From positions 16,558 through 80,557 of the forward strand of contig JAQBRI010000006.1 in assembly GCA_028286585.1 (NCBI GenBank): DNA of 64,000 nucleotides. Reading direction: 5' to 3'. The stretch's first letter is position 1; each line of letters begins with the position of its first letter. The notes beneath the pieces were generated by a model, which saw nothing but the letters and a program-made list of their open reading frames with translations, searched no databases and was not told where the DNA came from. Shown one piece after another: positions 13,410 to 43,480 of this stretch. The position numbers were made by a program, and so were the translations under genes. Source of the DNA: Candidatus Kaiserbacteria bacterium. GTDB lineage: Bacteria; Patescibacteriota; Minisyncoccia; Phycocordibacterales; UBA2100.

Positions 13410-13416
13410 ATATGTA

Positions 13417-16409: not shown

Positions 16410-16457
16410 CGAGTCATTTTCTCACAAATTATTTATTATCCAAATACCGCCCTAAAA

Positions 16458-17450
16458 TCAGGAAATAACTTTTATAAAGTCACGTGCTACTGCGTCATAG
16501 GTGCGTACCGTGCTCCATTTCGAAACCTTTTCGCATTCCTGTTCATACACCCGCGGATCAAGCAATGATTTTATCGCGACCACAAGCTCATCTTCATTCA
16601 ACGGATCAACGAGCAGGCCGTAGGGCTGCAGCTCTTCCTCAAGTCCGCAATATTTTGTCATGATAAAAGGCTTATGACATCGGGCTGCATCAAGGATAAA
16701 GTTTGGACTAATTTCAGTAATGGATGGTAATAATACCGCGTAACAATATTTCATCCGTTCAAGTAGTTCCTTATGAGAATAAATTCCGTCATCAAGAATT
16801 ATGTCGGGAAATTTTGCTTGAACTCGTGCAAATGCACTACGCACGATCGTGAGGTTTTTGAACACAAGCGAGCGCACATTCCACATAAAAATCTTCTCAT
16901 GCGGCGGCTCGCCCGGGGTCAATTCTTCAATGGCATTTCCAATGATATGCGTATGCTCTTTTGCGATTCTATATTCGGCACACCACAGATCCTGTTGTAG
17001 CTTTGTGCTAAAAATCATACGTGCGCGCCGCACTACATACCCTGTGAGTGCATATATCATTCGCTCCTTACGCGTAAATGGCTGGTGGTGCGAGTAAAAG
17101 CCGGACAAAGGTAACAGATCATGACTGCGCTCGAGATATGCCTCCCATAAAAAATCTCCGCCCGTGCGGATATATACCTGTGTCTTAAAAAAACCTGCGA
17201 GAAACACTAGCGGCAGCGCCACGCTAAACGTATCAAGTGCGATTACTGTCTTATAACGCATAAGGTACGATATGAGTCGGATACCAAACGCTATATGACG
17301 AATGCCGATTGGAAGTTTTTTGAGCCTGCCGTACGTGACCACTTCAACAGTGTGCCCTGCACGCCTGAGCGAAAACTGCAGCTCTTGTGCATAGCGCGAT
17401 GGTCCGCCAATTTCTGGCGGAAATATGCCTGTTGCTATGAGAATTTCCAT
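16458..17450 (-). CDS. glycosyltransferase (GT-B fold, GT4-like)
   Basis: MEILIATGIFPPEIGGPSRYAQELQFSLRRAGHTVEVVT N-domain; weak C-domain similarity. Confidence 0.55.
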   Translation of the reverse strand: MEILIATGIFPPEIGGPSRYAQELQFSLRRAGHTVEVVTYGRLKKLPIGIRHIAFGIRLISYLMRYKTVIALDTFSVALPLVFLAGFFKTQVYIRTGGDFLWEAYLERSHDLLPLSGFYSHHQPFTRKERMIYALTGYVVRRARMIFSTKLQQDLWCAEYRIAKEHTHIIGNAIEELTPGEPPHEKIFMWNVRSLVFKNLTIVRSAFARVQAKFPDIILDDGIYSHKELLERMKYCYAVLLPSITEISPNFILDAARCHKPFIMTKYCGLEEELQPYGLLVDPLNEDELVVAIKSLLDPRVYEQECEKVSKWSTVRTYDAVARDFIKVIS

Positions 17451-17459
17451 ATCACAATT

Positions 17460-18668
17460 CTACCTGTCGTTTAACAGTTTGCCGAATACCCTTTCACGCA
17501 TGGCCTGTGCGATGAGATTCCAGTCGTATTTTTCAATGACCATTCTTTTGGCGGTAGCACATACTTCATGAACTTTCTCGGGGCGTTGCATGATATCTTT
17601 GATTGCTTCGGCTATTTGATTTGGTGAATCTTTGTCTACCGCCCAACCTGTTGTCGGCATATTTGGATTGCGTTTCTCATCAAAAAGAAAGTCAGAGATG
17701 CCTCCTTCTTGCGTAGCGATAACAGGTAGGCCCGCGGCCATCGCCTCGACAAATGAGTTGCCCATTCCCTCGGAACGCGAAGGACGAATGAAAATATCAC
17801 AGGCCTGTAGCATCAAGGGCATTTCCGTATGTCCGAGATTTCCCAACAGATGCACACGGTTTTCTAACCCAAGTTTTGTAATGAGAATTTTTAACATATC
17901 TTCATCCGGCCCGGAGCCATATATAGCAAAGTGAACATTCTCCGGTAAAAGTGCCATCGCTCGTATCACATCATCTACTGCGTTTTTTGTAACAAGTCGC
18001 GATGTAGTAATCAAAAAAACATCACCTGTCTTCTTTCCCATTTTTTCTCGTGCAGCATTAAGTTCTGTTTCAGAATATTCCTGAGAAAAATGCTTCACAT
18101 TCACTGCGTTTGGAATTACTTCTATTGGGCCTTTGAAACCGCGTGCCCGTGCCCATTTTGCGAGAAATGTCGAAAGAGGCTGAATGATATCCGCCTTGGT
18201 GAATGCCCGCGTAAAGAGCGGCCAGACTGGGATCATCTTATGTTCGATATATGCAATTGGATCACCTTCCTGAAGATTTAAAACATATCCGACCTCCGGA
18301 TGCGCCATCTTAAAAAGTGCAGCGGGCACACCGGTTGCATGCGCCATCACTGCCCATATAGCGTCGAATGTATGCTCACGATGCAGACGTAGCGCGCACC
18401 ATGCAGTCAAAAACTGATAGAGTGGTTTGTTTATGGCAAGAGGAAATTTTTTCAAATCTGCCATCGACGGATTTTTGCTTGTAATACCAATTCTATGCAC
18501 GTATACATTTCCTATTTTTTCTTCTCTGGGCAATGACGAATCAAAACGGTTGCAAATCAGATGGAATTCTATATCGTCGATTCTATCGGTAATTTCCTTT
18601 ATTGAAACTTCAGCACCTCCCACGTGTTTGGGAAGGTACGCGAGACTAAAAATGAGTACTTTTTTCAT
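17460..18668 (-). CDS. GT4 family glycosyltransferase
   Basis: IRPSRSEGMGNSFVEAMAAGLPVIATQEGGISDF. Confidence 0.8.
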   Translation of the reverse strand: MKKVLIFSLAYLPKHVGGAEVSIKEITDRIDDIEFHLICNRFDSSLPREEKIGNVYVHRIGITSKNPSMADLKKFPLAINKPLYQFLTAWCALRLHREHTFDAIWAVMAHATGVPAALFKMAHPEVGYVLNLQEGDPIAYIEHKMIPVWPLFTRAFTKADIIQPLSTFLAKWARARGFKGPIEVIPNAVNVKHFSQEYSETELNAAREKMGKKTGDVFLITTSRLVTKNAVDDVIRAMALLPENVHFAIYGSGPDEDMLKILITKLGLENRVHLLGNLGHTEMPLMLQACDIFIRPSRSEGMGNSFVEAMAAGLPVIATQEGGISDFLFDEKRNPNMPTTGWAVDKDSPNQIAEAIKDIMQRPEKVHEVCATAKRMVIEKYDWNLIAQAMRERVFGKLLNDR

Positions 18669-19525
18669 GAGTGAATCTTGGTGATTTCATGCACATATTC
18701 CTCGAGGGTTTTTTCTGGACTCCAACCCAGCGCATATGATTTAGTTGCGTCCAGAATGGATGTCAGGCGATTGCCTTGTCGTTCAGGCAGCATTTCAATT
18801 GGCAGGTTAAAAAGTTTTGCGATTTCAAGAATAGAGTACGATCTTTCGGCTCCAAGGCCAAACTCGTCACCTTCTCCTTTTTCACCAACTAACAATAATC
18901 CTCTTACAATATCATCAACATGCGTAAAGATGCGCTCTTGGGTTCCCGGTGCCGTAACGGTAAGTCGCTCACCTTTGAGGAATTTTTGCTTGAATATTTC
19001 GATGACGGTTCCGTATGCATTACTTCGTTCTCCCGGACCATATACATTATAAAAATAGGTAATCGCGTACCTGAGTCCAAACCATTGTCCGTAATTGCGC
19101 ACCAAATCTGTATTACTTGCCTTGCTCCAGGCATAGGGACTTTGATCGCGGCCCATTCCACCATCGGCAAATTTAGTCGATGATCCGGCATAAATCAGTT
19201 TGCATTGGGAGGCACGCCAAAACTCCAGCACACCAAGCGTACCCGCAATGTTAAAATCCCATACTAGAGCTGGCTCGGTAAAACTAATTTCAACACGTGA
19301 ATATTCCCCAAGATGATAGATACAACCCACTGCATCGGTAATATGGCGTGCAATGTCCTTGGTATGGCCTTCGATATATTCAACTCCTTCGATGTGGTTG
19401 TCCCTAGAGCCTGTAAAGTAATTATCGAGTGAAATAACACGATTACCCCTTTCTAAGAGCGCCTTGCAAAGATGAGTGCCGACAAAACCTGCCCCTCCGG
19501 TCACCAGCACTGTTTTTTGGTTCAT
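18665..19525 (-). CDS. NAD-dependent epimerase/dehydratase (UDP-glucuronate decarboxylase/UXS-like SDR)
   Basis: VLVTGGAGFVGTHLCKALLERGNRVISLDNYFTGSRDNH; YAWSK (YxxxK). Confidence 0.7.
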   Translation of the reverse strand: MNQKTVLVTGGAGFVGTHLCKALLERGNRVISLDNYFTGSRDNHIEGVEYIEGHTKDIARHITDAVGCIYHLGEYSRVEISFTEPALVWDFNIAGTLGVLEFWRASQCKLIYAGSSTKFADGGMGRDQSPYAWSKASNTDLVRNYGQWFGLRYAITYFYNVYGPGERSNAYGTVIEIFKQKFLKGERLTVTAPGTQERIFTHVDDIVRGLLLVGEKGEGDEFGLGAERSYSILEIAKLFNLPIEMLPERQGNRLTSILDATKSYALGWSPEKTLEEYVHEITKIHS

Positions 19526-19561: not shown

Positions 19562-20455
19562 TTAGATGCTATTGCCTATCGAAAGCGAAAGCGCAAAAGC
19601 CAAAACAGTTACGAGTGAAAATAAAAACACCGACCTTCCCCATTTTTTATCATCTGTCGCATTAAATCCCCGAACAGCAAGCAGGAGCCATAGTACAGAC
19701 ACAAGACCCATGATGACTGCATAGATTTTGCCTTCGTATCCTGAGAGAAATAACCATTCTGAAAATACTCCAAACAGCACAATATAGGCAAGCGTGTGCA
19801 TTTTCGTTGTACGAACCCCATACACCACCGGCAAGACCGGGATGCCCGCATTTTTGTAATCGTCAAATCGATACAATGCTATTCCATATGAATGCGGCAT
19901 CTGCCAAACGACGAGTACTAAAAAAAGAAGTATCGCACCCAAATCAATATGATTTGTGACAGCAAGATATCCCACGACGGGCGGCACAGCTCCTGCAATA
20001 GCCCCGATAAGCGTTCCGTAGACACTCTTTCTTTTACCCCATAAGCTATACACCACTACATAAAAGAAAAGACCTACAAGCGCAACAAAAGTTGTGAGAA
20101 TATTTGTAAATACGAAAAGCACGAATACTCCCACAATTCCAAGAGCCAGTGCGTACAAAAAAATATTTCTCTTGGATATAACACCGCGCACCAGCACACG
20201 CTCTTTTGTGCGCTCCATCCGTGCATCAATATCGCGATCTATATAATTATTTATCACACATCCGCAGGCAATAATAAGTGATATTCCGACTAGAACGATA
20301 AGTAACAAAGTAATATCAAGATGGCCGCGGGTAGCCAAAAAATATCCCCCAATAACATTGATCGCATTACCGTAGATAATGCCCGGTTTTATAACAGAAT
20401 AGTATGCTTTTACTTGAGAGTCGCGAGGCATGATATTAGAGGGCATTTTGGACAT
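19562..20455 (-). CDS. cyoE: protoheme IX farnesyltransferase (heme O synthase, UbiA family)
   Basis: Multi-TM UbiA architecture, NYIDRDIDARMERTKERVL motif region; directly downstream of the quinol oxidase subunits. Confidence 0.85.
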   Translation of the reverse strand: MSKMPSNIMPRDSQVKAYYSVIKPGIIYGNAINVIGGYFLATRGHLDITLLLIVLVGISLIIACGCVINNYIDRDIDARMERTKERVLVRGVISKRNIFLYALALGIVGVFVLFVFTNILTTFVALVGLFFYVVVYSLWGKRKSVYGTLIGAIAGAVPPVVGYLAVTNHIDLGAILLFLVLVVWQMPHSYGIALYRFDDYKNAGIPVLPVVYGVRTTKMHTLAYIVLFGVFSEWLFLSGYEGKIYAVIMGLVSVLWLLLAVRGFNATDDKKWGRSVFLFSLVTVLAFALSLSIGNSI

Positions 20456-20813
20456 TTACCGTGCCGTCTCCCTGCATTGGTACCATGGTACGGCCTGTAA
20501 GATTGTTCATGACCCACAATGATCCAACAAGTAAAATCAGAATGATAACAATAGTAAAAATGAACGCGATAATATTCCAGCGCGCGTGCGATTTTGCGCT
20601 GAGATGTAAGAAACAAATCAGTTGCACAATCTGCTGAGTTACCGCGATCAAAATGATCACACCAGCTGCAACAGCATTTGAAAACATGTGATTAACCACA
20701 ATCATGTACGCTCCCAAGGTGAGTATAATCGACAATACAAAGCCGACTATGTAGCTCGAAAGCGTGCCGTGCGCTGCACCATATTCTGTATCCAATGTAT
20801 TAAAGTTTTCCAT
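20436..20813 (-). CDS. cyoD: quinol oxidase subunit IV
   Basis: 125 aa, three TM helices, operon position after subunit III. Confidence 0.7.
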   Translation of the reverse strand: MENFNTLDTEYGAAHGTLSSYIVGFVLSIILTLGAYMIVVNHMFSNAVAAGVIILIAVTQQIVQLICFLHLSAKSHARWNIIAFIFTIVIILILLVGSLWVMNNLTGRTMVPMQGDGTVNVQNAL

Positions 20814-20822
20814 AGTCCTAGA

Positions 20823-21413
20823 TTATAGTGTTCCCAAAAGGTATACGACGGTAAAGACGAATATCCAAATAATATCAAGAAAGTGCCAGAATATTCCAAG
20901 GGCAGTAAGCTTGCGAAGTATCTGCGGCGAGAGTCCCCTGTCGACAATTTGAATCATGAGGGTAAACATCCACAATAATCCCAAACTTACATGAAGAGCA
21001 TGTGTTCCGACAAGCGTAAAAAATGCCGAAAGAAATCCGCTTCGAGTCCAGCTGATACCTTCGTTCACAAGATGTGAAAACTCATTTATTTCCAATGATA
21101 CGAACGAAAGTCCTAGGAGAATAGTGATGGCAATTAATATAAGTGCAGTGTTTTTGCGATGATGATGCACTGCAAGCATAGTGAGTCCATAGGTAAAGCT
21201 TGAGCTCAAGAGTATGAGTGTTTCGACAAGAACAAAGGGTAGGTTAAAGATGTCTTTAGCTGAAGGTCCACCAAAAGTATTGTTGTGCAAAACGGCATAG
21301 ACAATGAAAAGTGCCGCAAAAAGAAAACAGTCACTCATGATATAGATCCAGAATCCAAAAACTGTTCGCGCATCGGCTTTGAGATGATGATTATGCAATG
21401 TTAAGTCGTTCAT
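20823..21413 (-). CDS. cyoC: quinol oxidase subunit III
   Basis: 196 aa, 5 TM, typical CyoC/QoxC. Confidence 0.85.
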
Positions 21414-23383
21414 ATTGTTTTGTGTCTTCGTGATTCTATAAGTGCGACTGTTTCTGCCGATACAACATATTCTGTCTCCTGATCAAATGATCGGACCATG
21501 ACACTCGCAATGATACCGATAAGTGCCACGGCACAGAGCCATGTAATATGCCATACGATTGCAAATCCAAACACGAGTGCAAAAGCTGCAATAATAAAAC
21601 CGAGCGGTGTATTCTTTGGCATAACGATGTCCTCGTAGGAACTATGCTGCGGCCGCATGTGCGCTTCTCCATATTTCATATCCCAAAAAGCGTGTCTGCC
21701 ATGGACTGTTGGAATATGCGCAAAGTTGTAAAACGGTGGCGGCGATGAAGTCGACCATTCAAGTGTACGACCATCCCACGGATCGCCCGTTAGATCTTTA
21801 TTGTGCTTACGGTCACGGAAACTTACATATAGTTGTATACCCTGGAATACGCCGCCAAGCGCTATGATACAGACGCCTATCGCAGCAATAATCAGAAATG
21901 GCTGCCATCCTGTTGTAATATCATAATGACTCAAGCGCCGAGTCATGCCCATGAGTCCAACGATATAAATTGGCAAAAAAGCGACAAAGAATCCGATGAC
22001 CCAGCACCAAAATGCGTATGTGCCATATTTTTCATTAAGTTTGAATCCAAAGAACTTTGGAAACCAATATGCGAGTCCGGCAAAGTAGCCAAAGATAACA
22101 CCGCCGATGATTGTGTTATGAAAATGCGCAATCAAAAAGAGACTGTTATGCAATTGAAAGTCCGCAGCTGGAATTGCCATCAATACTCCTGTCATCCCAC
22201 CAAACGTGAATGTCGAAATAAATCCCATTGTCCACAACATCGGCGTGGTAAATGTAATGCGGCCGCGGTACATGGTAAACAGCCAGTTGAATATTTTGAC
22301 ACCAGTTGGAATGGCAATGATCATCGTCGCAATACCAAAAAATGCATTCACATTAGCGTCCGCGCCCATCGTAAAGAAGTGATGCACCCACACGATAAAT
22401 GAAAAGAATGTGATAGCGACCGTTGCCCAAATCATCGTGGTATAGCCAAAGAGTTGTTTGCGCGAAAAGACCGGCACCACTTCGGAAAAGATTCCGAATG
22501 CGGGAAGAATCAGAATATACACCTCGGGGTGTCCCCACGACCAGATCAAATTGATATACATCATTGGATTACCACCAAAATCTGCGCTAAAGAAATGCAT
22601 CCCATAAAATCTATCGAGAAACAAAAGTGCAAGCGTGACTGTGAGAATTGGAAATACAATAACCACCAAACTCATCGCCGAAAGCGTCGTCCAAACAAAA
22701 ACCGGCATACGCATCAAGGTCATGCCTGGTGCGCGCATCCGAAGTATGGTGACGAGAAAATTAATACCAGACAAGAGCGACCCTACGCCTGCGATTTGAA
22801 TACACCAAATATAATAATCAACGCCGACACCCGGGCTATACACAAGTTCTGAAAGTGGCGGGTACGCAAGCCAACCCGTGCGTGCAAATTCACCAATCGA
22901 AAGCGACAGATTCAAGAGAAGCGCTCCCGAAACCGCAAGCCAAAGACTAAGCGAATTAACAAACGGAAATGCGACGTCGCGGCTGCCTATAAGAAGAGGC
23001 GTGGCTAGATTAATCAGCCCAAACATGAGCGGCATCGCTACAAAGAAAATCATTATCACGCCGTGCGCAGTAAAAACCTGGTCATAATGATCAGGCGGCA
23101 AAAAACCGTGTGCACTCCCTGCAGAAACTGCCAATTGCCCGCGCATCATTGCAGCATCTATAAATCCACGCACCATCATCACAAATGCGAGGATAAGATA
23201 CATAATTCCTATCCGTTTATGGTCAACTGTGGTAATCCAGTTTTTCCAGAGCCACGTCCAACGATGTTTTACGGTAAGAATACTGAGAACTGCAATAACC
23301 ACGATGCTCATTAAAATGGTTGCGCCAAAAATGATCGGATCATGGGGAAATGCACTCAAGGTCAGGTTGCCAAAAAGATTCAT
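21410..23383 (-). CDS. cyoB: heme-copper quinol oxidase subunit I
   Basis: 657 aa; [20 protein letters not shown]-like motifs of heme-copper oxidase subunit I with the C-terminal extension typical of CyoB. Confidence 0.9.
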
Positions 23384-23386
23384 ATA

Positions 23387-24301
23387 TTATATGCCCCGCA
23401 TATCAGCACTTGTCATGTTCATATCCATCCCATTCATCTGCGTTGAAGGCATCATATATTTCATAATAATTGTATCATAGAGCCCTGATGGAACTTGGGA
23501 ATAAAAGTGTATCTTTTCACTCTCACTTGGTTTAACGAGTGCTTCGTACGTCGAACTGGTAAGTGAATTGTCAGAATTTTGTACTGCGGTAACCCAGGTA
23601 GCGTAATCTTCGGAACTAACCGCTCGAGCAACAAACGTCATGTCCGAAAATCCATTACCGCTAAAGTTTGCCGATGAACCGCGGTAATCACCAATTGTAT
23701 CTGCCGAAAGATTGAGCTGCGTTTGCATGCCAGGCATCGCATAAATTTGTCCGCCTAGCCGTGGTATCCAAAAGGAATTCATTGGGGCATCGGCCGTAAT
23801 AACAAATCGAACGGGAGTATCTTTTGGAAACTCTACAAAATTGAGTGTCGCTATTCCCTCTTTAGGATAAATGAACAACCATTTCCAATTGAGAGCAACT
23901 ACTTCGATCGTCATGGTCGGATTCTCATCGATAATCTGTCGGTACGGATCAAGCTCCTTGGATGAAACCCATGTTATGGCCGCAAGAAGGCAGATAATAA
24001 ATATCGGGATCATCCACCAGACAGTTTCGAGTAAAACACTATGTGACCATTCGGGACTATATTTTGCCGAGGTATTTTCTGCTCTATAACGCCATGCAAT
24101 CACATAACTTAATCCGACGACTGGCACGACTACAAGGAGCATGAGCACAACAGAAATAATAATGAGACTTCGTTCCTGCAAAGCAATTACTCCGTTTGGC
24201 TGGAGGATTCCGAGAGAGTGTCCCAGTGTAAAATAATAGAGAATGCCACAAAAACCGACTGCAAAAATTAATAGTGCGAGAGCTTTGAGCGCAAATTTCA
24301 T
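23387..24301 (-). CDS. cyoA: quinol oxidase subunit II (no CuA ligands)
   Basis: NSFWIPRLGGQIYAMPGMQTQL closely matches the E. coli CyoA region; the Cys/His CuA motif is absent, so it is quinol- rather than cytochrome c-type. Confidence 0.85.
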   Translation of the reverse strand: MKFALKALALLIFAVGFCGILYYFTLGHSLGILQPNGVIALQERSLIIISVVLMLLVVVPVVGLSYVIAWRYRAENTSAKYSPEWSHSVLLETVWWMIPIFIICLLAAITWVSSKELDPYRQIIDENPTMTIEVVALNWKWLFIYPKEGIATLNFVEFPKDTPVRFVITADAPMNSFWIPRLGGQIYAMPGMQTQLNLSADTIGDYRGSSANFSGNGFSDMTFVARAVSSEDYATWVTAVQNSDNSLTSSTYEALVKPSESEKIHFYSQVPSGLYDTIIMKYMMPSTQMNGMDMNMTSADMRGI

Positions 24302-25262: not shown

Positions 25263-27455
25263 TTATGGATTACCAATAATTTTGCGAAGCATTTCTGGCG
25301 AAATATCTGATTCGATGTCGGTTTCCGACTCAGGCGGAAGCATTGTTCGCGGCGGTTGTGTAGTTTGTGTTTGCTGAACGGGTGGCTGGTTTACGGTCAC
25401 ATGCGTCTGTATTATTGTATTCTCGAGTTTAGGTGGGACTACCGCAGCAGGATGCGGTTGGTGAATATGCATGTGTGTATGTTTGTGATGCGATTCCTGA
25501 GGCTTTTGTGTGGGAGCTGGTGTCGGTTGGGTGTTTGGCTTCTTTTGCATTTTTTCACGCAATATTTCTGCAGGAGTTTTAACTCGAGGTGTGGAAGCCG
25601 CAGGAGTAACGGGAGCCGCAGGTTTTGCCCGCGCTGCCTCTATCGCATCTCGAAGTGATGCACGCGGATCGGCTTTTACTGGTGGTGGCACAGATTCCGT
25701 TCTCTCTGCATGCGTATTGGATTGCGCAAACGAACGCTGATCTGTCTTTGTTTCAAAGTTGGTGGTAACTGTATTTCGGTTTACAACGAGCGTCGGCTGA
25801 AAATTAAACGTGGACTTTCTCTCGTCTCTCTGGATGGATACGACTGACGTTGCCGGTCTTGGCTCTACCGGAGTACTTACTTTATTTGTAACCGAACGAA
25901 GTGCGGCAAGCGGAGACTGGCCTTGCTGTTGCGGCGAATTGTTCTGAGAGTAACCTCCTCCCTGTGGGCCATATGTTTTCTTTTTTGCATCTCGAGGAGG
26001 CGCCACAAATTCTGACTGCTTTGCAGCAATATATTGCTCGATATCGGCGCGCGTCCGCGCATATGCAGCACGTGAATGTACAATCACATCATCCTTGTAA
26101 GAAATAACCGGTTTTTCAATAGGCGGAATCGTTTCCGCAGAAAATGGCTGTGAACCCACTCCGTCAATCATGAGTGTGAGGTAAATTTGTCCGAGACCAA
26201 GGTTAACAAGGTCTTCTGCCAAAAAGGTTGGCTCAAAAACAGTCTTTAGCGTTTCGGCGTCAAATGGTCCTACGCGAAACGTAATCAAGGTTCCCACGTT
26301 TCCAAACACTGCATCACGAACAGTTTCCTCCATTTGTTCGATGTACTGGTTGGCAAGCGTGAGTGCTAGTTTGTATTTGCGTGATTCGGAAAGAATATCC
26401 GCAAACGCTTCGTTCATCATCGACTGAAATTCATCAACATAAAAGAAACATCGGGGCAGTTTTGCCATGCGGCTTGGCGGCTCATCAGCGCGGCTCATCG
26501 CAGCGAGATAAATCTTGACCGTAAGCATCGAACCCAACAACGACGCGTTGGTTTCTCCCATGCGGCCTTTAGAAAGGTTGACGATAAATATTTTCTTTTC
26601 ATCCATTGCCTCTCGCAAATTAAATGAAGATTTTGGTTGTCCCACAATATTACGAATCAAAGGATTTGATACGAATTGTCCAATCTTGTTCTGAATCGCA
26701 GGGAGCGCCTCGCGCGTATATGTATCGGTAAAGTTTGCGAATTCGTCGAGCCAAAACGACTTAACGATCGGATCAGTTACCTTTTCGATAACTGCATCAC
26801 GAAAGGTTTTGTTGACCAATAGGCGGTTTACGTCGAGCAAAGTCGAGCCCGGATACTCAAGAAGTGCAAGAAGGGTATTTTGCAATATATATTCCATACG
26901 TGCGCTCCATGCATCAACCCAAATACGCTTGAGCGCGCCCATGAGCCCGGCAACAACGAGGTGACGTTGATCAAAACCGATATCCTCCATGATATTAAAG
27001 CCCATCGGGTTTTCCGTATCAAATGGAGCAAAATAAATAACATCATTGATGCGGTCGTGCGGGACAAAGTCGAGCAACTTTTCAGCGGTCGAACCGTGCG
27101 GATCGATAAATGCGATGCCCTCGCCATGCTGAATGTCCTGGATAGCCATGTTTTCGAGCATGGTTGATTTACCCATACCAGTTTTTCCAATGACGTAGAT
27201 GTGTTTGCCTCGGTCAATTCCACGTATGCCAAACATCTCACGTTTGCCGCGTGTATGCGTTGCCGCAAAATAAGTAATTCTGCGATCATCGTCAACTGCT
27301 GGTTTGTGAGAATTGTCAGCGTTCATACGCAAAGTATAACAGAGGATTATATTTCTTGTGTCAATCGCCCGCACAGTGTGATACCTGTCATTATTGTGTT
27401 GTTGTAGTACTTTCTCCCAAAACCGATCGGAGTGAGCGATATTTGTTGGCGGCAT
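25263..27455 (-). CDS. TraD/VirD4-like type IV coupling-protein ATPase (FtsK/HerA superfamily) with a disordered Pro/Gln/Thr-rich C-terminal tail; start uncertain (alternative Met at 27326)
   Basis: Walker A VIGKTGMGKST, Walker B FFYVDEFQSM, IFIVNLSKGRMGE; C-terminal ~270 aa low complexity. Confidence 0.65.
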   Translation of the reverse strand: MPPTNIAHSDRFWEKVLQQHNNDRYHTVRAIDTRNIILCYTLRMNADNSHKPAVDDDRRITYFAATHTRGKREMFGIRGIDRGKHIYVIGKTGMGKSTMLENMAIQDIQHGEGIAFIDPHGSTAEKLLDFVPHDRINDVIYFAPFDTENPMGFNIMEDIGFDQRHLVVAGLMGALKRIWVDAWSARMEYILQNTLLALLEYPGSTLLDVNRLLVNKTFRDAVIEKVTDPIVKSFWLDEFANFTDTYTREALPAIQNKIGQFVSNPLIRNIVGQPKSSFNLREAMDEKKIFIVNLSKGRMGETNASLLGSMLTVKIYLAAMSRADEPPSRMAKLPRCFFYVDEFQSMMNEAFADILSESRKYKLALTLANQYIEQMEETVRDAVFGNVGTLITFRVGPFDAETLKTVFEPTFLAEDLVNLGLGQIYLTLMIDGVGSQPFSAETIPPIEKPVISYKDDVIVHSRAAYARTRADIEQYIAAKQSEFVAPPRDAKKKTYGPQGGGYSQNNSPQQQGQSPLAALRSVTNKVSTPVEPRPATSVVSIQRDERKSTFNFQPTLVVNRNTVTTNFETKTDQRSFAQSNTHAERTESVPPPVKADPRASLRDAIEAARAKPAAPVTPAASTPRVKTPAEILREKMQKKPNTQPTPAPTQKPQESHHKHTHMHIHQPHPAAVVPPKLENTIIQTHVTVNQPPVQQTQTTQPPRTMLPPESETDIESDISPEMLRKIIGNP

Positions 27456-30135: not shown

Positions 30136-31422
30136 TTACAAAGCAACAATCTGTTCGGCGACTTTGTAAATATCTCCTGCACCGATCGTAATAATGAGGG
30201 TTCCCTCTTTTTCTTTGAGCAACTCATCGCGAATCTCGTCAAAGGTGTCGAGTGCTATCACGGTGCCGCCTTCGGTTTCGTTCGCAAGTTCGGCAAGAAT
30301 ATGGTTTGAAACACTAGGATCGTGCACTTCTCGCGCGGCATATATTGGCGCGATGATTGTTGTATCGGCCTTTCCAAGTGCGTCTGCAAACTCAGGTAAA
30401 AGTGACTGAGTGCGACTATATAAATGCGGGTGAAAAGCAACAACGATGCGCATAGCGGGAAATCTTTCTCGCGCTGCCTCTATCGTCTTTGTAATTGCGG
30501 TCGGATGATGTGCATAATCATCATATACAAGAGCGCCGTTCACCGTCTCTCCTTTGTATTCAAACCTGCGCCATGAGCCTTTGAAATTCGTCAACGCCTC
30601 ATCCAGTATATCTTCGGAAATTAATGGAAATACTTCTGCTGCTGCCACTTTTGCTGCTCGTGCGTTCATATTGTTAAATTCCCCTAGCATTGGAAGCGTC
30701 GGAACACTTGCAAGTGAGTAATCGACAACGGTCGCGACAGCGTCCTCGAGCAAGGGTCGAATGTTTGGGTTGTTGGTATCGGTAATGATAAAACCATGCG
30801 CCGGCACACGATCGATCGCCATTTTAAAACTTTTTTGAATTGCTTCGAGCGTAGGAAAATAATCAGTATGATCCAGTTCGATATTGGTGATCACCAAAAC
30901 TTCGGGAGAAAGTTTGAGCATATGGTCTCGATATTCGCACGCCTCTACTACAAACAAATTTGGATCTCCTGCAAGAAAGTTTGACCCAAAATCTTTGACG
31001 ATAGATCCGATAATTGCAGTAGGCTGCATTCCTGCATGCTGCAATATTTTTGTAAGCATGCCGGTAGTAGTTGTCTTTCCGTGCGTGCCGGCAACTGCAA
31101 TCGTGCGCATATTTTTTGAAATTATACCGAGCGCATCAAAGTACGAAATTTCAGGAATATTCATTTCGACACCTCTCACTCGCTCGACATTGTCGGGGTA
31201 GATCGCGTCACTATAAATAATAAGCTGTACATTTGCTGGAATATTACATGGATCTTGACCTATCATGATCTGCACTCCTTTTGACGCAAGAAGGGCCGTC
31301 GGTGGTGATTCTTCTCTATCTGAACCGGTCACGTTTTTGCCCTGATGCACAAGGAGTTGTGCGAGCGCAGACATGCCTATCCCCCCGACGCCGATCATGT
31401 AAATGTTCTCAGGAATTTCCAT
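30136..31422 (-). CDS. murC: UDP-N-acetylmuramate--L-alanine ligase
   Basis: IYMIGVGGIGMSALAQLLVHQGKNVTGSD, GTHGKTTTTGML Mur ligase motifs. Confidence 0.9.
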   Translation of the reverse strand: MEIPENIYMIGVGGIGMSALAQLLVHQGKNVTGSDREESPPTALLASKGVQIMIGQDPCNIPANVQLIIYSDAIYPDNVERVRGVEMNIPEISYFDALGIISKNMRTIAVAGTHGKTTTTGMLTKILQHAGMQPTAIIGSIVKDFGSNFLAGDPNLFVVEACEYRDHMLKLSPEVLVITNIELDHTDYFPTLEAIQKSFKMAIDRVPAHGFIITDTNNPNIRPLLEDAVATVVDYSLASVPTLPMLGEFNNMNARAAKVAAAEVFPLISEDILDEALTNFKGSWRRFEYKGETVNGALVYDDYAHHPTAITKTIEAARERFPAMRIVVAFHPHLYSRTQSLLPEFADALGKADTTIIAPIYAAREVHDPSVSNHILAELANETEGGTVIALDTFDEIRDELLKEKEGTLIITIGAGDIYKVAEQIVAL

Positions 31423-31475: not shown

Positions 31476-34091
31476 CTATTTTGTAGACAATGTATGTATT
31501 GATTGAGCAAAAGCATCGCCTCTTTCTTCGAAGTTTTTGTACAGACCATAACTTGGTGAAGCACACGAAAGTAAACATGCTCCTCCTTGAGGAGTGTGTG
31601 CATAGGCAAATTGTACCGCCTCGTCCATCGATTCAGTTTCCAAAATGTTGAGTCCTTCTCGCTTGGCAAACATTCGCCGACCGCTTTCAGGAAAAATAAC
31701 TATATTTTTGATTCCTCGTTTTATTATTTCTTGTTCAAGCTCAGTAAAATCATATCCGCGATCATGTCCCCCAAGAAATAGGGCCTGCACGTTTGGCACA
31801 GCTTCGAGCGCAGCAATGGTTGATTCCGGTGTCGTTGAAATGGAATCATCATAGAAACGAATGCCTTTATACTCTCCTACCAATTCAAGACGATGTGGCA
31901 AACTCTTAAAACTTTTAACTGCGGTTAGTATTGCTTCATCAGAAACACCTAACAGGCGTGCGACTGTCACCGCTCCTCTTACATTTGTTTTGTTGTGCAT
32001 TCCAAGCAAAGGAATCGCTTCGTCCGAAAACGGCAGTGTTTCAACATACGGAACACTTGTTGCAGAAGTTTCTGTTGTCCACGCTGACAATGCGGCATAT
32101 TCGTCGTTGTAAACGTAGTAGTCGGTTGTTTTTTGGAACATGATAATGCGTTTCTTTGCCTCGTGATACGCCTTTTCAGATCCGTGATAATCCATATGGT
32201 CAGAAAAGAGTGTAGTAACAAGCGCAATGTGCGGTGAAAATTCACAGTCATCAAGCTGATAACTGGACAGTTCAATTACCGCCACCTGATTTGGTGAAGT
32301 ATGAGATTCCAAAACAGAGAGCATGGGTACACCAATGTTACCCACGAGAACGCTCGGCATATTCTCTGCAGTCAACATAGAATGAATCAGGGACGCGGTG
32401 GTGCTTTTGCCCTTACTACCTGTTACACCAACCGTAATGCCTTTGAAACGCGAGAAAAATATATTGGTAGCAGTCGTGTAGTGTGCAGTGATTTTTTCTT
32501 TTGGAATGCCGGCTGTTTTTACCACAATATCGTAGTCATGCTGTTTTTCCAGATATTGAGGATCTTCGGACTGATCGGCGTGTGCGATCTGGAGTTGCGG
32601 ATATTTTGAACGCAAAAATTCTTCGGTCGTTTTACCTTCTCGTGCATAACCAAGCAAGAGTACAGATTCCATCCCTGCAAAGCGAAATCGCTGCGGTACC
32701 GAGGAAGCTGGTGCAACTTTTCGAACCTCTTGCACCAATGCCTCACCATCTGTAATGCGATCTGCAAAAGATGTAACAACCGCACTTTCTGCATAGATTG
32801 CACGAACCAGATGGAGCGCAGCGCATGCTTCGTCAAATGTACCGACACAATCAAATGGCTTCATCGATCCAAACCCAAGAATATCTGCAAAAACAGTAAG
32901 CAGGGCGCGATCGTCGAGCAAATTGCGTCCAAAAATACTCACCAACTGATCTTTTTCGATATAGGGAGCAAGCATTAAAAATACAAATGCACATTTAGGA
33001 CATTCGCAGCACCACATACTTCCCGGTCTGCCCAAGGGATCGATACGAAATTTTCTGTTACAACTGGTAAACACAGAAAAATACTGCGGGTACCGCGCAA
33101 AAAGTTCGGCTATTCGTATTTCATAAAGCGGACGCACAATTGAAAAATATCGCACGCTCGGACTGAGGTAGTTTTTTGTATAGCGAGTAAACATGTTTTC
33201 AAATTCAAGCGATTTACTCCACTGGTGATTAATCTGCTCACCATAATGATCGACATTACCAAAATTACTACTCCATTCGTTGCCTGTCACAACATATGAA
33301 AAGTCGTACAGAAGTGCAGCAGTATAGCCCAAAAATGCATACACAGCCGAAATAGGAATATGACCCTTAAAGCTTCCCGGCAGCACGTCAAAAACCTGCG
33401 GATCAAGTCTGCGCACAATATGATTGAGTGGAATGTTTGCTACGGCGCAGACATTTTCTGCAATGTCATGTTTTGCATATGTTTCTATAACAAATCCTTC
33501 GGAGGATATTTCCTCTGCACGTAGCAGCTCCACCGCAACCACTGAGTCTTTGCCTCCCCCAATCCCGACAAGTGCACGCTCTTGAGTGGAGACGTCTTCT
33601 GCAGGCGCTGGTGTAGTTTGAGTGAACGGAAATTGAATATATCTTAGATCGATATTGTTGCGGTACGCAAATTCACCAAGACCTTTGCGATACACGGTGC
33701 TCCAAAATTCACTCTGTTCCTGCGTCAGTAAGTACGGCATGCGTATATCTTTGGGACAATATAGTTTGTAGTAACTAATACCCAGCATGAGATGGAGCGA
33801 GTCGAGCAACCGCTCAAACAGCTCCGAGGAAATTCGAACAGTATCAAAAGGATGTGGAAATGTAACCGATTCTACAAATCTTCGAGGTTCGCTATGTGCG
33901 AACCCTATTTCATACACAAAAGACGCTACCAGTTCATCTGGATTAAAGAATCGTTCAACGTAAGAAAAGTAAACAGGCTCGGGCATACCACAGTATGCCC
34001 GATTTTGCTGCCTCAACCAAGTAGTCTCGGCAGCTGATTTGTGATCGAAGTTGCGCAAACAAATGGGAGGCGTATAGTGCAAATACTTCAT
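31476..34091 (-). CDS. murD: fusion of an N-terminal PP-loop ATP-pyrophosphatase-like domain (with Cys cluster) to UDP-N-acetylmuramoylalanine--D-glutamate ligase
   Basis: One uninterrupted 871-codon frame. C-terminal ~400 aa: VLLLGYAREGKT Rossmann-like domain then ITVGVTGSKGKSTT and DHMDYHGS Mur ligase motifs. N-terminal ~470 aa: ALVGIGGGKDSVVAVELL (SGGxDS PP-loop) and SMWCCECPKC. Confidence 0.8.
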   Translation of the reverse strand: MKYLHYTPPICLRNFDHKSAAETTWLRQQNRAYCGMPEPVYFSYVERFFNPDELVASFVYEIGFAHSEPRRFVESVTFPHPFDTVRISSELFERLLDSLHLMLGISYYKLYCPKDIRMPYLLTQEQSEFWSTVYRKGLGEFAYRNNIDLRYIQFPFTQTTPAPAEDVSTQERALVGIGGGKDSVVAVELLRAEEISSEGFVIETYAKHDIAENVCAVANIPLNHIVRRLDPQVFDVLPGSFKGHIPISAVYAFLGYTAALLYDFSYVVTGNEWSSNFGNVDHYGEQINHQWSKSLEFENMFTRYTKNYLSPSVRYFSIVRPLYEIRIAELFARYPQYFSVFTSCNRKFRIDPLGRPGSMWCCECPKCAFVFLMLAPYIEKDQLVSIFGRNLLDDRALLTVFADILGFGSMKPFDCVGTFDEACAALHLVRAIYAESAVVTSFADRITDGEALVQEVRKVAPASSVPQRFRFAGMESVLLLGYAREGKTTEEFLRSKYPQLQIAHADQSEDPQYLEKQHDYDIVVKTAGIPKEKITAHYTTATNIFFSRFKGITVGVTGSKGKSTTASLIHSMLTAENMPSVLVGNIGVPMLSVLESHTSPNQVAVIELSSYQLDDCEFSPHIALVTTLFSDHMDYHGSEKAYHEAKKRIIMFQKTTDYYVYNDEYAALSAWTTETSATSVPYVETLPFSDEAIPLLGMHNKTNVRGAVTVARLLGVSDEAILTAVKSFKSLPHRLELVGEYKGIRFYDDSISTTPESTIAALEAVPNVQALFLGGHDRGYDFTELEQEIIKRGIKNIVIFPESGRRMFAKREGLNILETESMDEAVQFAYAHTPQGGACLLSCASPSYGLYKNFEERGDAFAQSIHTLSTK

Positions 34092-34331
34092 GTGGAAGTT
34101 GGGTACTCACCCGTTTCGTCGAAATTACGACGAAATAAGGAAAAATTCCCATACTGTGCCGCAGCGGTAATGCTCTGACTTGCTCGTCGTAGTCTATAAG
34201 ATTAAGGCTGGGTCCAAGAAAATGAGACGAGTCCGATCTTCATGAGGTTCGCATTAAACGCGAGTACCCGAGCAGGATTGGCACCAGATAGTGCCATTTT
34301 CCAAAACCTGCTCAACAAGCAGGCTTTTTTT

Positions 34332-34907
34332 ATGAAAACCAAATACTACATACTTCACTCGCTTTTAGTTGTCGCACTTATCGCGATAGTGACTGTCATT
34401 ATTTGGCATTCAAAAACAACAACACAATCCTCTTTTGCCACATCAACATCTGTAGCAACATCGGCAACAGAAAGCACATCTTCAAAATCATTAATACATT
34501 CTTCGACTGAGACCGTGCCAGTTCAGGCGAAGGTGGCTGCAAAGACCGAGGTTACGCCGCAAGAAACATCTGCAACATCGAGTGCGACAACGAACGCGAC
34601 GTCTACCCCTGAGAAAAATCCCGCGCTTTTTGCCCATCTTGTGATTGGATCACAATCATACGATCTTCCGATTCACGAGGACGAAACACTTCTTGATGCA
34701 ATGCAGGCGCTTCAATCATCCACTTCTTTTGACTATTCTGGGCGGCAGTACACAGGACTAGGGTTCTTTGTTATGTCTATCAACGGCAAGGCGGCCGCGG
34801 ATGGATTTAACTGGATGCTCTATGTTGATGGTAGGCCGTCGGAGTATGGTGCGAGTGCTCTTATTATTAAAACAGGTCAAAAAATAGAATGGAAATATGA
34901 AAAATAA
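34332..34907 (+). CDS. membrane-anchored DUF4430 (transcobalamin beta-domain-like) protein; start taken at MKTKYY
   Basis: N-terminal TM, Ser/Thr-rich linker, C-terminal [33 protein letters not shown] matches the DUF4430 core (W-x-Y-x-V-N/D-G...DGD..W.Y). Confidence 0.55.
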   Translation: MKTKYYILHSLLVVALIAIVTVIIWHSKTTTQSSFATSTSVATSATESTSSKSLIHSSTETVPVQAKVAAKTEVTPQETSATSSATTNATSTPEKNPALFAHLVIGSQSYDLPIHEDETLLDAMQALQSSTSFDYSGRQYTGLGFFVMSINGKAAADGFNWMLYVDGRPSEYGASALIIKTGQKIEWKYEK

Positions 34908-36909
34908 ATTATTCGGTGCGATTATTGTAAGCATTTTTGGATTATTAATACCAGCATTTTCGTTTGCAGACACTGCAACGATAACACTCCGCGTGGGCTC
35001 TGTTACAACAGGACCATACACCATTACGTTACCTGATTTGAGCGCAACCACAACGGCAACAACCACAGCCGTTACTCCAACAGCAGGCGGAACACCAATC
35101 GATATCCCAGCATTGAGTGTTCTTGCAAATTTGGTTGGACTAGACGCTACGACAGGCGACTTTGATATAACCGATCTGCAGTATTCATCGACGTACAGCT
35201 CCTTTTATCTACGGTGTATCTCGGTGCCGAGTGTTTCTAGCTCGCCCCAGTGTGATAACTGGCAATATACCGTGAATGGTTTTGGTCCTAGTGTAGGTTC
35301 TGACGTAACAACGCTTCACAATGGAGATAACGTGTACGTCTATTTTGGCTATCCACGTTCAGTCACCCTTTCAACCACTAGTACGGCAATTGGAAATTCG
35401 TTTACTGCAACGACACAAGCCTACGATCCAGCTACAAATTCGTTCACTCCGATTACAGGAGTTACTATAGGCGCGACCCAACCAAATCCAAGCAATCCAT
35501 ATTCGCCAATAGAGATTGCTACATCACCTGTCGACACAAATGGGCAAGCAATCATAACAGTAAATGCAACTGGCACGTATCAGGTTGGTATTAAAGAGGA
35601 TTATTATTTTCCAACAACTGATATTACGATAACCGATGCTCCTGCAACTACAACTCCTGTAACAGGAGGCGGAGGCAGCGGCCCGATTGGAATTACTCAT
35701 ACTCCGTTTAATGTTCCTCTTGCAGTAAGTTATCTTGTCTCACAACAAAACCCTGATGGCTCGTTTGGGAATGATCTTTATAGCGACTGGGGCGCACTAG
35801 CACTTGCAGCTACAAATGCCCCGACTCTTTCGACAATGAAGTCATACATGACCACGCATGTCGAAACCTATAACAGTGTTACCGATTACGAACGACACGC
35901 CATGGCACTTGAAGCACTTGGTATCAACCCGTACACGGGCTCAAAAACCGACACTATCAGTCCTATTCTTGCAGCATTTGATGGCACGCAGATCGGAGAC
36001 TCAAACCTCGTAACTGATGACATCTTTGCAATCTTTGCGCTTACTCACGCGGGATATAATTCAAGCGATACGATTATCAAAAAAGAAGCGGCATTTATTT
36101 TGTCGAAGCAACTTCCTAACGGATCATGGGAAGGCAGTGTCGATGTTACCGCTGCAGCTATGCAGGCACTTGGTCCATTGTTTGATATTCCGGGGGTTAA
36201 CCGCCAGCTTGGTCCTGCAATCGCCTACATTACAGGAATAGAACAGCCAACCGGTGGATGGAATAATATTGACTCAACAAGTTGGATGGTAACGACAATC
36301 AACACATTCAACAGTTTCCATGTGGGCCAGCCAAGTATTTGGAACAGTTCACTTGGATACTTTCCTATAGACGCGCTAGGGAGCGCTCAGCAATCCGACG
36401 GAGCAGTTCGCCCGGTAAGTGACTCGGCAAATGCACGAGTATGGAGTACAAGTTACGCGGTAGTAGCAGCATCGGACATGGATTGGGTTAGATTATTACA
36501 GCAGTTTCCTAAACCAATTCCTAGTGTAGGCAGTAGTGGAATCAGTGTTGCTTCATCAACCACTTCGACAAGCTCAGACCAGGCAACCTCAACGGCGACC
36601 AGCACTTTGCCAGTTGCAACAACTACACCAATTACCGTAAGTACTTCAACAGCCACTTCGACAACCCCGATAGATGGACAAGTACTTGGCGTTTCCACTT
36701 CGACTGTTCCTACAACACCTCACCCTAAACCAGTAGTTATAAAAAAGAAGCCGGTTGTAGTACATCCTGTTCCAAAGGTCCCAGCAGCAACATCTTCGAC
36801 ATCGACTAAAACGAATACTGTCGGATCAAATCAAACTGGTTCGGTTATCACTCCCAGCCCTGCGGGATTCTGGCAGTGGATTGGAAGTTGGTTTAAGAAT
36901 TTGTTCTAG
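34897..36909 (+). CDS. secreted DUF4430 domain + prenyltransferase/squalene-cyclase-like alpha/alpha-toroid repeat protein with Ser/Thr-rich tail and C-terminal hydrophobic anchor
   Basis: Signal peptide [24 protein letters not shown]; [31 protein letters not shown] (DUF4430); repeats [37 protein letters not shown] (QW-type prenyltransferase repeats). Confidence 0.65.
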
Positions 36910-43146: not shown

Positions 43147-43147
43147 T

Positions 43148-43476
43148 ATTTCGCTGCGCCTATAAGCCGGGTTCTGTGCATGCAGATTCAAAATCTGCAC
43201 CGATGATCATATATCTGCGATGTGTGTTGCCACACACCTGTAGCGGCTCTCCGCGTCGAGCGCGGCACGGCCTTGCACGCGAGTAGGAATTTTGCCGTTT
43301 CACTCTTACCTTTCGATAAGCCTCACCCCAAAGGGTGCCTAGCCTCTCGGCATTGGCGTCTCTGCTCGCATCCCTATCCTTACGGATGATGGGCGTTACC
43401 CACTACTTGTTACCTATGATGGCTACGTGCCCGGACTTTCCTCTATCAATAATGACAGCGACCATCCAACGCAGAA
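43148..43476 (-). ncRNA. rnpB: RNase P RNA (bacterial type), not represented in the ORF track
   Basis: Minus strand carries the P4 halves GGAAAGUCCGGGC (from 43429-43441) and ACAGAACCCGGCUUA (from 43163-43177) about 250 nt apart. P1 pairing CUGCG/CGCAG. Own promoter and terminator. Confidence 0.75.
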
Positions 43477-43480
43477 TTGT

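Follow-up and report, generated by a model that had tools for sequence, protein, structure and literature searches.

A MurL-MurD2 fusion protein in a Patescibacteria genome: a probable bifunctional enzyme of the alternative route to D-glutamate in peptidoglycan precursors

Peptidoglycan precursors can be made through a known alternative branch, that of MurD2 and MurL, and the open reading frame (ORF) described here most probably specifies a bifunctional enzyme of this MurD2/MurL branch (estimated probability about 0.87). The pathway is already known and is found here in fused form; a reading in terms of amidation is not supported. MurL of Xanthomonas (2017; reviewed in PMC8788868 and PMC5808125) is the reference enzyme, and ATP-dependent, AMP-forming, one-way epimerisation of the terminal Glu from L to D was observed in vitro for enzymes from X. 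oryzae, Micromonospora and Salinispora (PMC8788868). The present assignment is based on homology and fold, on conserved motifs, and on the order of the genes and their pattern of fusion and fission; the MurD2 and MurL reactions, including AMP formation, are taken from the literature. Features located in the window, i.e. the whole stretch of 64,000 nucleotides that was analysed, are listed in Table 1.

Table 1. Features of the MurL-MurD2 ORF and the adjacent murC gene (window positions; Xs, X. sacchari; Xo, X. oryzae).
Feature	Position	Strand	Basis
MurL-MurD2, whole ORF	31476..34091	-	ORF call, family matches, fused homologues
N-terminal extension, residues 1-35	33987..34091	-	homologue alignment start; query coverage 88-93%
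MurL module, residues ~36-475	32667..33986	-	
PP-loop segment with GGGKDS (residues 178-183)	33543..33566	-	invariant residues, hhalign to E. coli QueC, Xs MurL
NHQWSKS motif, residues 288-294, invariant	33210..33230	-	homologue alignments, Xs MurL
Cys cluster C344 ... C361-x2-C364-x2-C367 (TSCN ... WCxxCPKC)	32991..33068	-	invariant Cys, Xs MurL
KPFDCVGT motif, residues 411-418	32838..32861	-	invariant residues, Xs MurL
MurL/MurD junction FRFAGMESVLLLGYAREGKT, residues 469-488	32628..32687	-	60-fusion alignment, AF2 model
MurD2-type Mur-ligase module, residues ~476-871	31479..32666	-	TIGR01087, PDB MurD matches, Xs MurD2 identity
Mur ligase ATP P-loop GVTGSKGKST (K562 = E. coli K115)	32400..32429	-	invariant, 109 fusions
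SDHMDYHGS: D631 (= E. coli D182 / Xo MurD2 E197), H632 (= H183)	32178..32204	-	
DDSISTTPEST: I751 in place of E. coli K319	31818..31850	-	alignments, Xs MurD2
LGGHDRGYDF: R778 (= E. coli K348 / Xo MurD2 R358)	31746..31775	-	109/109 fusions
CASPSYGLYKNFEERG: P846, Y848 (= E. coli A414, L416 / Xo MurD2 P433, F435)	31518..31565	-	
murC	30136..31422	-	TIGR01082 388.8 bits, above 335.1 cutoff

The ORF call and family matches give one in-frame MurL-MurD2 fusion of 871 codons followed by a TAG stop. A preliminary description of this DNA reported an uninterrupted frame in which a ligase of the MurD type is joined to a PP-loop enzyme, and this was confirmed. Of the 120 database proteins closest to it, 105 are the same fusion of about 815 aa, from many independent assemblies. 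No linker separates the two halves at the junction, where the MurL C-terminus continues as strand 1 of the N-domain of MurD. This region is free of gaps across 60 aligned fusions and is flanked on either side by conserved residues (P466, F469, G473, G481); in the full-length AF2 model (pTM 0.88) its pLDDT is 92-96. The murL and murD genes are separate in 34 of 80 related genomes, frequently with an overlap of 4 nt, so that one indel could merge both. Such joining of adjacent or overlapping genes by a sequencing or assembly frameshift is nevertheless exceedingly improbable here, given the recurrence of the fusion in independent assemblies, the gap-free junction with conserved flanks and the junction pLDDT above 90. 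An internal Met had also been proposed to permit independent expression of MurD. This start (M474) was rejected; Met occupies the position in 5 of the 60 fusions (Ile in 41, Val in 9), and independent expression thus has no comparative support. At the other end of the protein, residues 1-35 have no counterpart in the homologues and are probably not translated, and the alignments make the ATG at 33986 (M36) the likely true start. A clear Shine-Dalgarno sequence was sought before both ATGs (residue 1 and M36) and was seen at neither.

The N-terminal module matches the MurL model NF041275 with an E value of 1.3e-103 over model positions 10-413 of 447. At 347 bits the match falls short of the equivalog cutoff of 700 bits, apparently tuned to Xanthomonadales, and the NCBI rule would therefore not name the module MurL automatically. 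Identity to the annotated MurL of X. sacchari is 40.3% over 422 positions, and every motif is common to the two proteins. Five motifs, GGGKDS, NHQWSK, SCN, WCxxCxKC and KPF[DE]CVG, are invariant in 52 homologues and also in 7 homologues; the window protein and X. sacchari MurL each carry all five. From these sequence comparisons the module is assigned to the MurL family, and its activity can no longer be regarded as undescribed, as had been supposed. A scan of residues 1-470 with a Pfam-A set evidently lacking PF26298/PF26299 returned no match, whereas homologues carry precomputed assignments to these two families. A PDB sequence search matched no solved structure to the N-terminal half. The homology to Xanthomonas MurL extends over the full length, and the Xanthomonas gene likewise stands directly upstream of the gene for a MurD2-type ligase, with both oriented alike. 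The protein described here differs in being covalently fused to the ligase and in scoring below the Xanthomonadales cutoff. The host differs as well, being a Patescibacteria/CPR bacterium, whereas the known MurL hosts are Xanthomonadales, Alphaproteobacteria and rare actinomycetes.

In the predicted structure, the MurL module has a Rossmann-like alpha/beta core that superposes on known PP-loop enzymes, with QueC as the nearest structural relative by fold match. The loop, which is also found in X. sacchari MurL, directly follows model strand E135-141 (domain numbering) and has G176, G178-G180, K181 and S183 as invariant residues. It is a variant, GGGKDS, in which the first Ser of SGGxDS is replaced by an invariant Gly. 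The loop and the fold together bear out the earlier placement of the N-terminal domain among PP-loop enzymes of the QueC/TtcA/NAD-synthetase class. When the MurL profile was compared with E. coli QueC by hhalign, 16 columns were aligned with a probability of 2%, covering the P-loop (SGGQDS) alone, and QueC models were absent from the NCBIfam/Pfam matches of the fusion protein. Because only the P-loop aligns, membership of the QueC family was rejected and kinship was kept at the level of the fold. QueC and the QueC-like Cap9 of CBASS show about 15% identity to the module, with profile alignment limited to the P-loop. Compared with them, MurL adds an N-terminal subdomain of ~130 residues and a C-terminal helical subdomain, and the first loop residue is Gly in MurL but Ser in QueC. 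The outcome of the reaction also differs, being epimerisation and hydrolysis for MurL and amide or nitrile formation for QueC. MurL has been described as lacking known conserved domains, and its ATP-to-AMP chemistry was left unexplained (PMC8788868, PMC5808125); a QueC-like PP-loop fold explains this chemistry, the confident model giving a structural reason for the need of ATP-to-AMP conversion. No open-access paper linking MurL to PP-loop enzymes or QueC was found.

The model points to the PP-loop residues K181/D182, to C415, to H289/K293 and to the cluster of four Cys. H289 and K293 belong to NHQWSKS, one of two patterns picked as most conserved for the genome scan, and are candidate substrate-binding or acid/base residues. 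In KPFDCVGT (KPFECVGE in X. sacchari MurL) the invariant residues are K411, P412, C415, V416, G417 and T418, and C415 is a candidate for the catalytic base of the epimerisation or for its thioester-forming nucleophile. The cluster residues C344, C361, C364 and C367 are all invariant among the homologues and present in X. sacchari MurL. E. coli QueC carries a C-x8-C-x2-C-x2-C arrangement on the matching, C-terminal side of its core, and by this analogy the cluster is predicted to be a structural Zn site. Of the PP-loop fold and Zn/FeS ribbon anticipated for residues 1-470, the fold is seen in the model and a Zn ribbon is predicted by the analogy with QueC.

The C-terminal module is a Mur ligase by its match to TIGR01087 (267.6 bits, above cutoff), its Pfam Mur_ligase_M and Mur_ligase_C matches and its sequence matches to PDB structures of MurD. 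Catalytic K562, N585, E607, H632 and K646 correspond to K115, N138, E157, H183 and K198 of the E. coli enzyme, and the architecture is that of a Mur ligase. The module is 36.4% identical to X. sacchari MurD2 compared with 30.6% to E. coli MurD. Xanthomonas MurD2 is likewise a three-domain Mur ligase; the ligase described here differs from it in being joined to MurL and in having no N-terminal extension of its own.

Of five specificity positions, four (I751, R778, P846, Y848) bear the MurD2 signature; the fifth, mostly Glu in relatives, is D631. The K319 equivalent is never Lys in 109 fusions or 34 split MurDs, and is I339 in X. sacchari MurD2. The surrounding DSISTTP is common to Xanthomonas MurD2, canonical MurD having DSKATN or DSKSTN. 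The K319T substitution makes E. coli MurD accept L-Glu (PMC8788868), and from this result and the alignments we infer that loss of the lysine (DSKATN to DSISTTP) is a marker of the MurD2 family. Arg is found at the R778 position in every one of the 109 fusions and as R367 in X. sacchari MurD2. It also occupies the K348 position in the streptococcal MurD, which uses D-Glu (PMC8788868; also seen in the alignment), so that R778 alone is not diagnostic for MurD2. Pro is found at the P846 position in 108 and Tyr at the Y848 position in 107 of the 109 fusions (P443 and F445 in X. sacchari MurD2). Mutation of P433 and F435 in X. oryzae MurD2 left specificity unchanged (PMC8788868), and P846 and Y848 are therefore markers, not determinants. 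The combination of I751/R778/P846/Y848 with DSISTTP is absent from the E. coli, Streptococcus and third solved MurD. X. sacchari MurD2 shares it, having I at E. coli position 319, R at 348, P at 414 and an aromatic residue at 416. With this residue pattern, the C-terminal ~400 aa do not fit the plain D-Glu-adding MurD of the preliminary description, and the ligase would be specific for L-Glu.

D631 sets the fusion ligase apart from X. oryzae MurD2, which has E197 at this position. Asp is the minority state among relatives, with 98 Glu and 11 Asp in the 109 fusions; at the genome loci Glu and Asp number 31 and 7 in fused, 25 and 9 in split forms. The E197D mutant of X. oryzae MurD2 was shifted in stereospecificity toward use of D-Glu (PMC8788868), and the ligase might accordingly take D-Glu besides, or in place of, L-Glu. 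It could then be a conventional or dual-specificity D-Glu MurD, with MurL rescuing mis-incorporated L-Glu or being partly redundant; the state of the window protein is that of the mutant, and Asp is found in ~10-25% of MurL-linked MurDs. The remaining four positions nevertheless stay MurD2-like, and the full switch of the X. oryzae enzyme needed both E197D and R358K (PMC8788868). No MurL motif is decayed in the window protein, and the Asp variants occur in fused and split forms alike with MurL intact every time. A source of D-Glu was not found nearby. Sequences resembling E. coli MurI (tblastn, E<=1) were absent from the 64-kb window and from 80 related loci, and families of glutamate racemase and D-amino-acid aminotransferase were absent among the scanned ORFs of the window, which is part of the genome. 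A D-Glu-using ligase is thus considered unlikely.

In the preferred MurD2/MurL reading, the Mur-ligase module would add L-Glu, not D-Glu, onto UDP-MurNAc-L-Ala, converting ATP to ADP and Pi through an acyl-phosphate. The MurL module, as a QueC-like PP-loop ATP pyrophosphatase, would hold another ATP at its GGGKDS loop and adenylate the alpha-carboxylate of the new terminal L-Glu to give an AMP-ester and PPi. Adenylation would render the alpha-proton of Glu exchangeable, and the centre could be inverted either by a base of the protein (candidates being the invariant C415 and the pair H289/K293) or by way of a thioester or oxazolone intermediate. Neither a glutamate racemase nor a pool of free D-Glu would then be needed to bring D-Glu into the wall. 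The need of an L-Glu ligase for an epimerase explains why MurL is fused with MurD2; the fusion would be the overlapping murL-murD2 gene pair, as it occurs in Xanthomonas and also in other Patescibacteria, in a fixed state. In the standard route of MurI and canonical MurD, free Glu is racemised without ATP and D-Glu is then ligated, whereas in the MurD2/MurL route L-Glu is ligated first and inverted on the nucleotide-peptide, a step that consumes one further ATP and yields AMP.

The PP-loop module very probably acts by adenylation on the alpha-carboxylate of the stem-peptide Glu at the MurD step, and this part of the earlier proposal stands. Its other part was that the adenylated D-Glu is amidated with ammonia or glutamine to UDP-MurNAc-L-Ala-D-isoGln, an undescribed route bypassing MurT/GatD. 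QueC, the nearest structural relative, converts an adenylated carboxylate to an amide with ammonia. Sequence similarity to QueC is, however, restricted to the P-loop (hhalign probability 2%), whereas the module is 40% identical to Xanthomonas MurL with all invariant motifs common, and the in vitro product of MurL is the D-Glu acid, not an amide (PMC8788868). The attached ligase has specificity residues of the L-Glu type, which require an epimerase. MurT/GatD (lipid II isoglutaminyl synthase) likewise uses ATP on the stem-peptide Glu alpha-carboxylate, MurT, which is homologous to Mur ligases, acting on lipid II together with a glutaminase. It has no counterpart in the 64-kb window, since a search for murT, gatD and asnB, and for a glutaminase domain or neighbour, found none among the scanned ORFs. 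The MurT model matches the fusion protein at 15.2 bits (E 0.0072), attributable to the shared Mur-ligase domain. Amidation is therefore a very unlikely function of the module. It is equally doubtful that a Patescibacteria MurL-type module would, besides epimerisation, trap the adenylated alpha-carboxylate with ammonia in the manner of QueC and give D-isoglutamine directly.

The MurD2/MurL pathway has been presented as limited to Xanthomonas, Stenotrophomonas, Micromonospora and relatives, a small number of genera, and hence as a narrow-spectrum antibiotic target (PMC8788868). A scan of a genome collection changes this picture of its distribution, with relatives in at least 595 species-level genomes. 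Among the best 80 of these, 37 loci are fused, about half, and 34 are split but adjacent, so that 71 of the 80 are one or the other. Almost all of the best 80 are Patescibacteria, their loci are all of the Patescibacteria type, and none is from Xanthomonas. The Xanthomonas murL-murD2 pair used for comparison (X. sacchari) was taken from a plasmid collection; its genes are adjacent and overlapping, in the order murL then murD2 that is found in the fusion. The scan shows that the pathway is common in tiny uncultured Patescibacteria, a group absent from the phyla listed in two open-access MurL reviews (PMC8788868, PMC5808125). No open-access paper on MurL in Patescibacteria/CPR, or on MurD2 in such a context, was found.

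The finding suggests why many reduced genomes may do without glutamate racemase, and we infer that murI is absent from the present genome. To judge from a title cited in PMC11974145, glutamate racemase is present and active in some Patescibacteria (Saccharimonas). We consider it rather probable that across large parts of Patescibacteria fused or adjacent MurL/MurD2 is the main or only route to D-Glu, and that in mechanism MurL is an adenylating PP-loop enzyme resembling QueC, equipped with a catalytic Cys and a Zn ribbon; neither idea was found in searchable papers. A known system is thereby extended and explained, and no new kind of biology is involved.

The murC gene lies 53 bp downstream of the fusion on the same strand. 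It adjoins the fusion in 2 of the 37 fused loci, and its adjacency was rejected as a conserved operon feature. The product of murC makes the substrate of the MurL-MurD2 fusion enzyme.

The open reading frame in question runs without interruption, as the preliminary description had claimed, and all the peptides quoted there were located in it, including M474 of MESVLL at 32672. The N-terminal half matches NCBIfam NF041275 (MurL, UDP-N-acetyl-alpha-D-muramoyl-L-alanyl-L-glutamate epimerase) with an E of 1.3e-103 over model positions 10-413 of 447. The score of 347 bits falls under the equivalog cutoff of 700 bits, which appears to be tuned to Xanthomonadales. Residues 1-470 gave no match in local Pfam, and no solved structure was matched by sequence. 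When the N-terminal domain was compared by tblastn with a plasmid/chromid collection, the annotated murL of Xanthomonas sacchari R1 was recovered (40.3% identity, 422 positions). The motifs GxGGGKDS, GHIP, NHQWSK, SCN, WCxxCPKC and KPF[DE]CVG are invariant in 52 homologues and are all common to the window protein and X. sacchari MurL.

Fold comparison of the MurL module placed QueC (3bl5) at the top with a score of 14.3 over 178 aligned residues, followed by the QueC-like Cap9 (9nto, 14.2), ThiI and TtuA (9.6 each), LarE (9.2) and NAD/NMN synthetases (~9); NcsA, TilS, MnmA, GMP synthase and argininosuccinate synthetase were lower in the list. The loop follows the first core strand, which is also its place in these PP-loop enzymes, and is the sole segment that aligns with E. 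coli QueC in profile comparison (RALVGIGGGKDS vs RAVVVFSGGQDS). On these grounds the PP-loop noticed earlier is correct, as a GGGKDS variant in place of SGGxDS. The Cys cluster of E. coli QueC (C...C-x2-C-x2-C), which binds zinc, has a layout identical to that of the invariant C344, C361, C364 and C367, a predicted Zn site. A fifth invariant cysteine, C415, is within the KPFDCVGT motif. MurL was discovered in X. oryzae as XOO_1319 and was said to have no known conserved domains, with an unclear mechanism for which its discoverers proposed alpha-carboxylate adenylation (PMC8788868, PMC5808125). The PP-loop fold, as modelled, supplies a rationale for this AMP-forming chemistry; no searchable paper stating such a rationale was found.

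The last ~400 residues match MurD, in agreement with the preliminary description: TIGR01087 scored 267.6 bits (cutoff 211.95), Pfam Mur_ligase_M and Mur_ligase_C both matched, and phmmer matched eleven solved MurD sequences. From E. coli MurD to X. oryzae MurD2, an L-Glu-adding ligase, the residues near the Glu site change as D182 to E197, K348 to R358, A414 to P433 and L416 to F435; E197D plus R358K switched X. oryzae MurD2 to D-Glu use, and the single change K319T allows E. coli MurD to accept L-Glu (PMC8788868). These positions were mapped in E. coli MurD numbering with Ala as residue 1. Where Xanthomonas MurD2 and the Patescibacteria proteins share DSISTTP, the MurDs of E. coli and Streptococcus agalactiae and a third solved MurD show DSK[AS]TN. 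Judged by these residues and this motif, the ligase half is MurD2-like at four of the five specificity positions; D631, a minority state among homologues, is the chief caveat on this assignment.

Residues at the glutamate-specificity positions of MurD-type ligases
E. coli MurD	X. sacchari MurD2	Window protein	109 fused homologues
D182	E206	D631	E 98, D 11
K319	I339	I751	I 99, never K
K348	R367	R778	R 109
A414	P443	P846	P 108
L416	F445	Y848	Y 107

The fusion belongs to an alternative pathway that is already known, that of MurD2 and MurL. Judged by its family and its specificity residues, the ligase module would add L-Glu. ATP would then bind the PP-loop of the MurL module, a role resting on the modelled fold, and the alpha-carboxylate of the terminal Glu would be adenylated with loss of PPi. 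Inversion at C-alpha, for which C415 and H289/K293 are candidate acid/base residues, and hydrolysis of the adenylate would yield the D-Glu product and AMP. The epimerisation itself has been shown for other MurLs (PMC8788868, PMC5808125). The discoverers suggested that adenylation is stereoselective for the L-epimer, and this would make the conversion one-way. A ligase that adds L-Glu must be followed by an epimerase, and this need explains the fusion most simply.

The PP-loop had earlier been put forward as a possible sign of a new amidation route, in which the N-terminal module would amidate the stem-peptide Glu to give D-isoGln. No MurT, GatD or asparagine-synthetase-like protein was found among the window ORFs scanned (64 kb). 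The match of this half to NF041275 and X. sacchari MurL, together with the MurD2-like ligase, makes amidation highly improbable. Sequential ligation and epimerisation by MurD2 and MurL is the preferred reading. No MurI-like sequence was present in the 64-kb window or in the 80 best relatives' loci. The window also encodes MurJ, MurA and RodA. The gene murC follows the fusion gene in the same orientation after 53 bp; of the 37 fused loci, only 2 have murC as neighbour.

Searching protein sequences with the N-terminal half gave 1888 significant matches. Fusions of 800-830 aa make up 105 of the best 120, with named sources in Parcubacteria, Moranbacteria, Uhrbacteria, Pacebacteria and "Patescibacteria group" bacteria. 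When one genome per species was scanned, at least 595 genomes carried a relative, the best 80 being nearly all Patescibacteria-type MAGs. In these 80 loci, murL and murD are fused in 37 and directly adjoining on the same strand, murL first, in 34; five are cut by a contig end and four are of unresolved organisation. The murL stop and murD start overlap in 18 of the 34 split loci, most commonly by 4 nt; in X. sacchari the overlap with murD2 is 20 nt and the gene order is that of the fusion. Split and fused loci have the same MurD specificity pattern. Taken together, the loci form an ordinary fusion/fission series in which two translationally coupled genes are either joined or separate.

The MurL-MurD2 junction aligns without gaps and is conserved on both sides, and the predicted full-length model is compact (pLDDT 92.0, pTM 0.88), without a disordered linker. 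An assembly artefact is very unlikely. Separate MurD expression from M474, proposed earlier, found no support, the position not being conserved. Because alignments of homologues begin at residue ~36, the gene probably starts at the ATG at 33986, giving a product of 836 aa. The first 35 codons have no counterpart in any homologue, and automated annotation would therefore probably over-extend the gene by 105 nt. No obvious ribosome-binding site precedes either candidate start.

The reviews name only some Gamma- and Alphaproteobacteria and rare actinomycetes as MurL hosts; the orthologues they mention in a fungus, in cyanobacteria and in an amoeba are weak (PMC8788868, PMC5808125). Hundreds of MurL-MurD fusions are already in databases, some labelled epimerase by JGI, and Pfam families exist for the two MurL sub-domains. 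The single-polypeptide form, the abundance of MurL/MurD2 in Patescibacteria and the QueC-like PP-loop assignment of MurL go beyond the literature found.

Coordinates of the fusion gene and of other features
Feature	Position	Strand	Remark
Fusion ORF	31476..34091	-	871 codons
Its first 35 codons	33987-34091	-	
Glycosyltransferase/sugar-modification cluster	1-19500		~19 kb
Heptose-pathway-like genes	8464-11006	-	within the cluster
RfaE adenylyltransferase domain II-GmhB phosphatase	8464-9456	-	single fused ORF
Heptose-7-phosphate kinase domain	9462-10427	-	
GmhA	10437-11006	-	
Cytochrome o ubiquinol oxidase operon	19562-24301	-	complete
CyoE	19562-20455	-	heme o synthase
CyoC	20823-21413	-	
CyoB	21410-23383	-	TIGR02843, 1079.8 bits, above cutoff
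CyoA	23387-24301	-	
TraD/VirD4-like protein	25263-27455	-	730 aa
Two overlapping Thr/Ser-rich ORFs	34242-36909	+	221 and 670 aa
RNase P RNA	43147-43477	-	class A
16S rRNA	50631-52092	-	full
5S rRNA	63919-64000	-	partial, at window edge
MurL-like gene, locus L085, Pseudonocardia alni plasmid pPaSha1 (NZ_CP052772.1)	5959-7359		coordinates in L085

MurL-like genes were also seen on three Pseudonocardia plasmids (L085 and the matches H3 and H4 of the plasmid/chromid collection). Their products, annotated hypothetical, are 32-34% identical to the window domain and keep GGGRDS, NHQWSK, SCN, WCxxCxKC and KPFECVGE. No Mur ligase adjoins them; next to them a large WD40-repeat protein is encoded. They may represent a paralogue of MurL with a different peptide substrate.

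The cyo operon sits in a genome otherwise Patescibacteria/CPR-like; to our knowledge, this group is generally described as without respiratory chains. The genes resembling an ADP/GDP-heptose pathway occur in a host that, as far as we know, is not expected to make LPS. The 16S gene has no 23S neighbour, and the partial 5S gene lies in the same orientation ~12 kb upstream of it, so that the rRNA genes depart from the usual 16S-23S-5S arrangement. The Thr/Ser-rich proteins, divergent from the fusion gene, are probably secreted; neither received a family assignment, and the 670-aa one has a faint squalene/terpenoid-cyclase-like repeat match (E 5.6e-06). The flanking ORFs of the TraD/VirD4-like protein had no family matches. 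This protein, whose coupling-protein matches are weak (E 4e-12, far under cutoffs), could be a remnant, or could belong to a type IV secretion or conjugation-like system.
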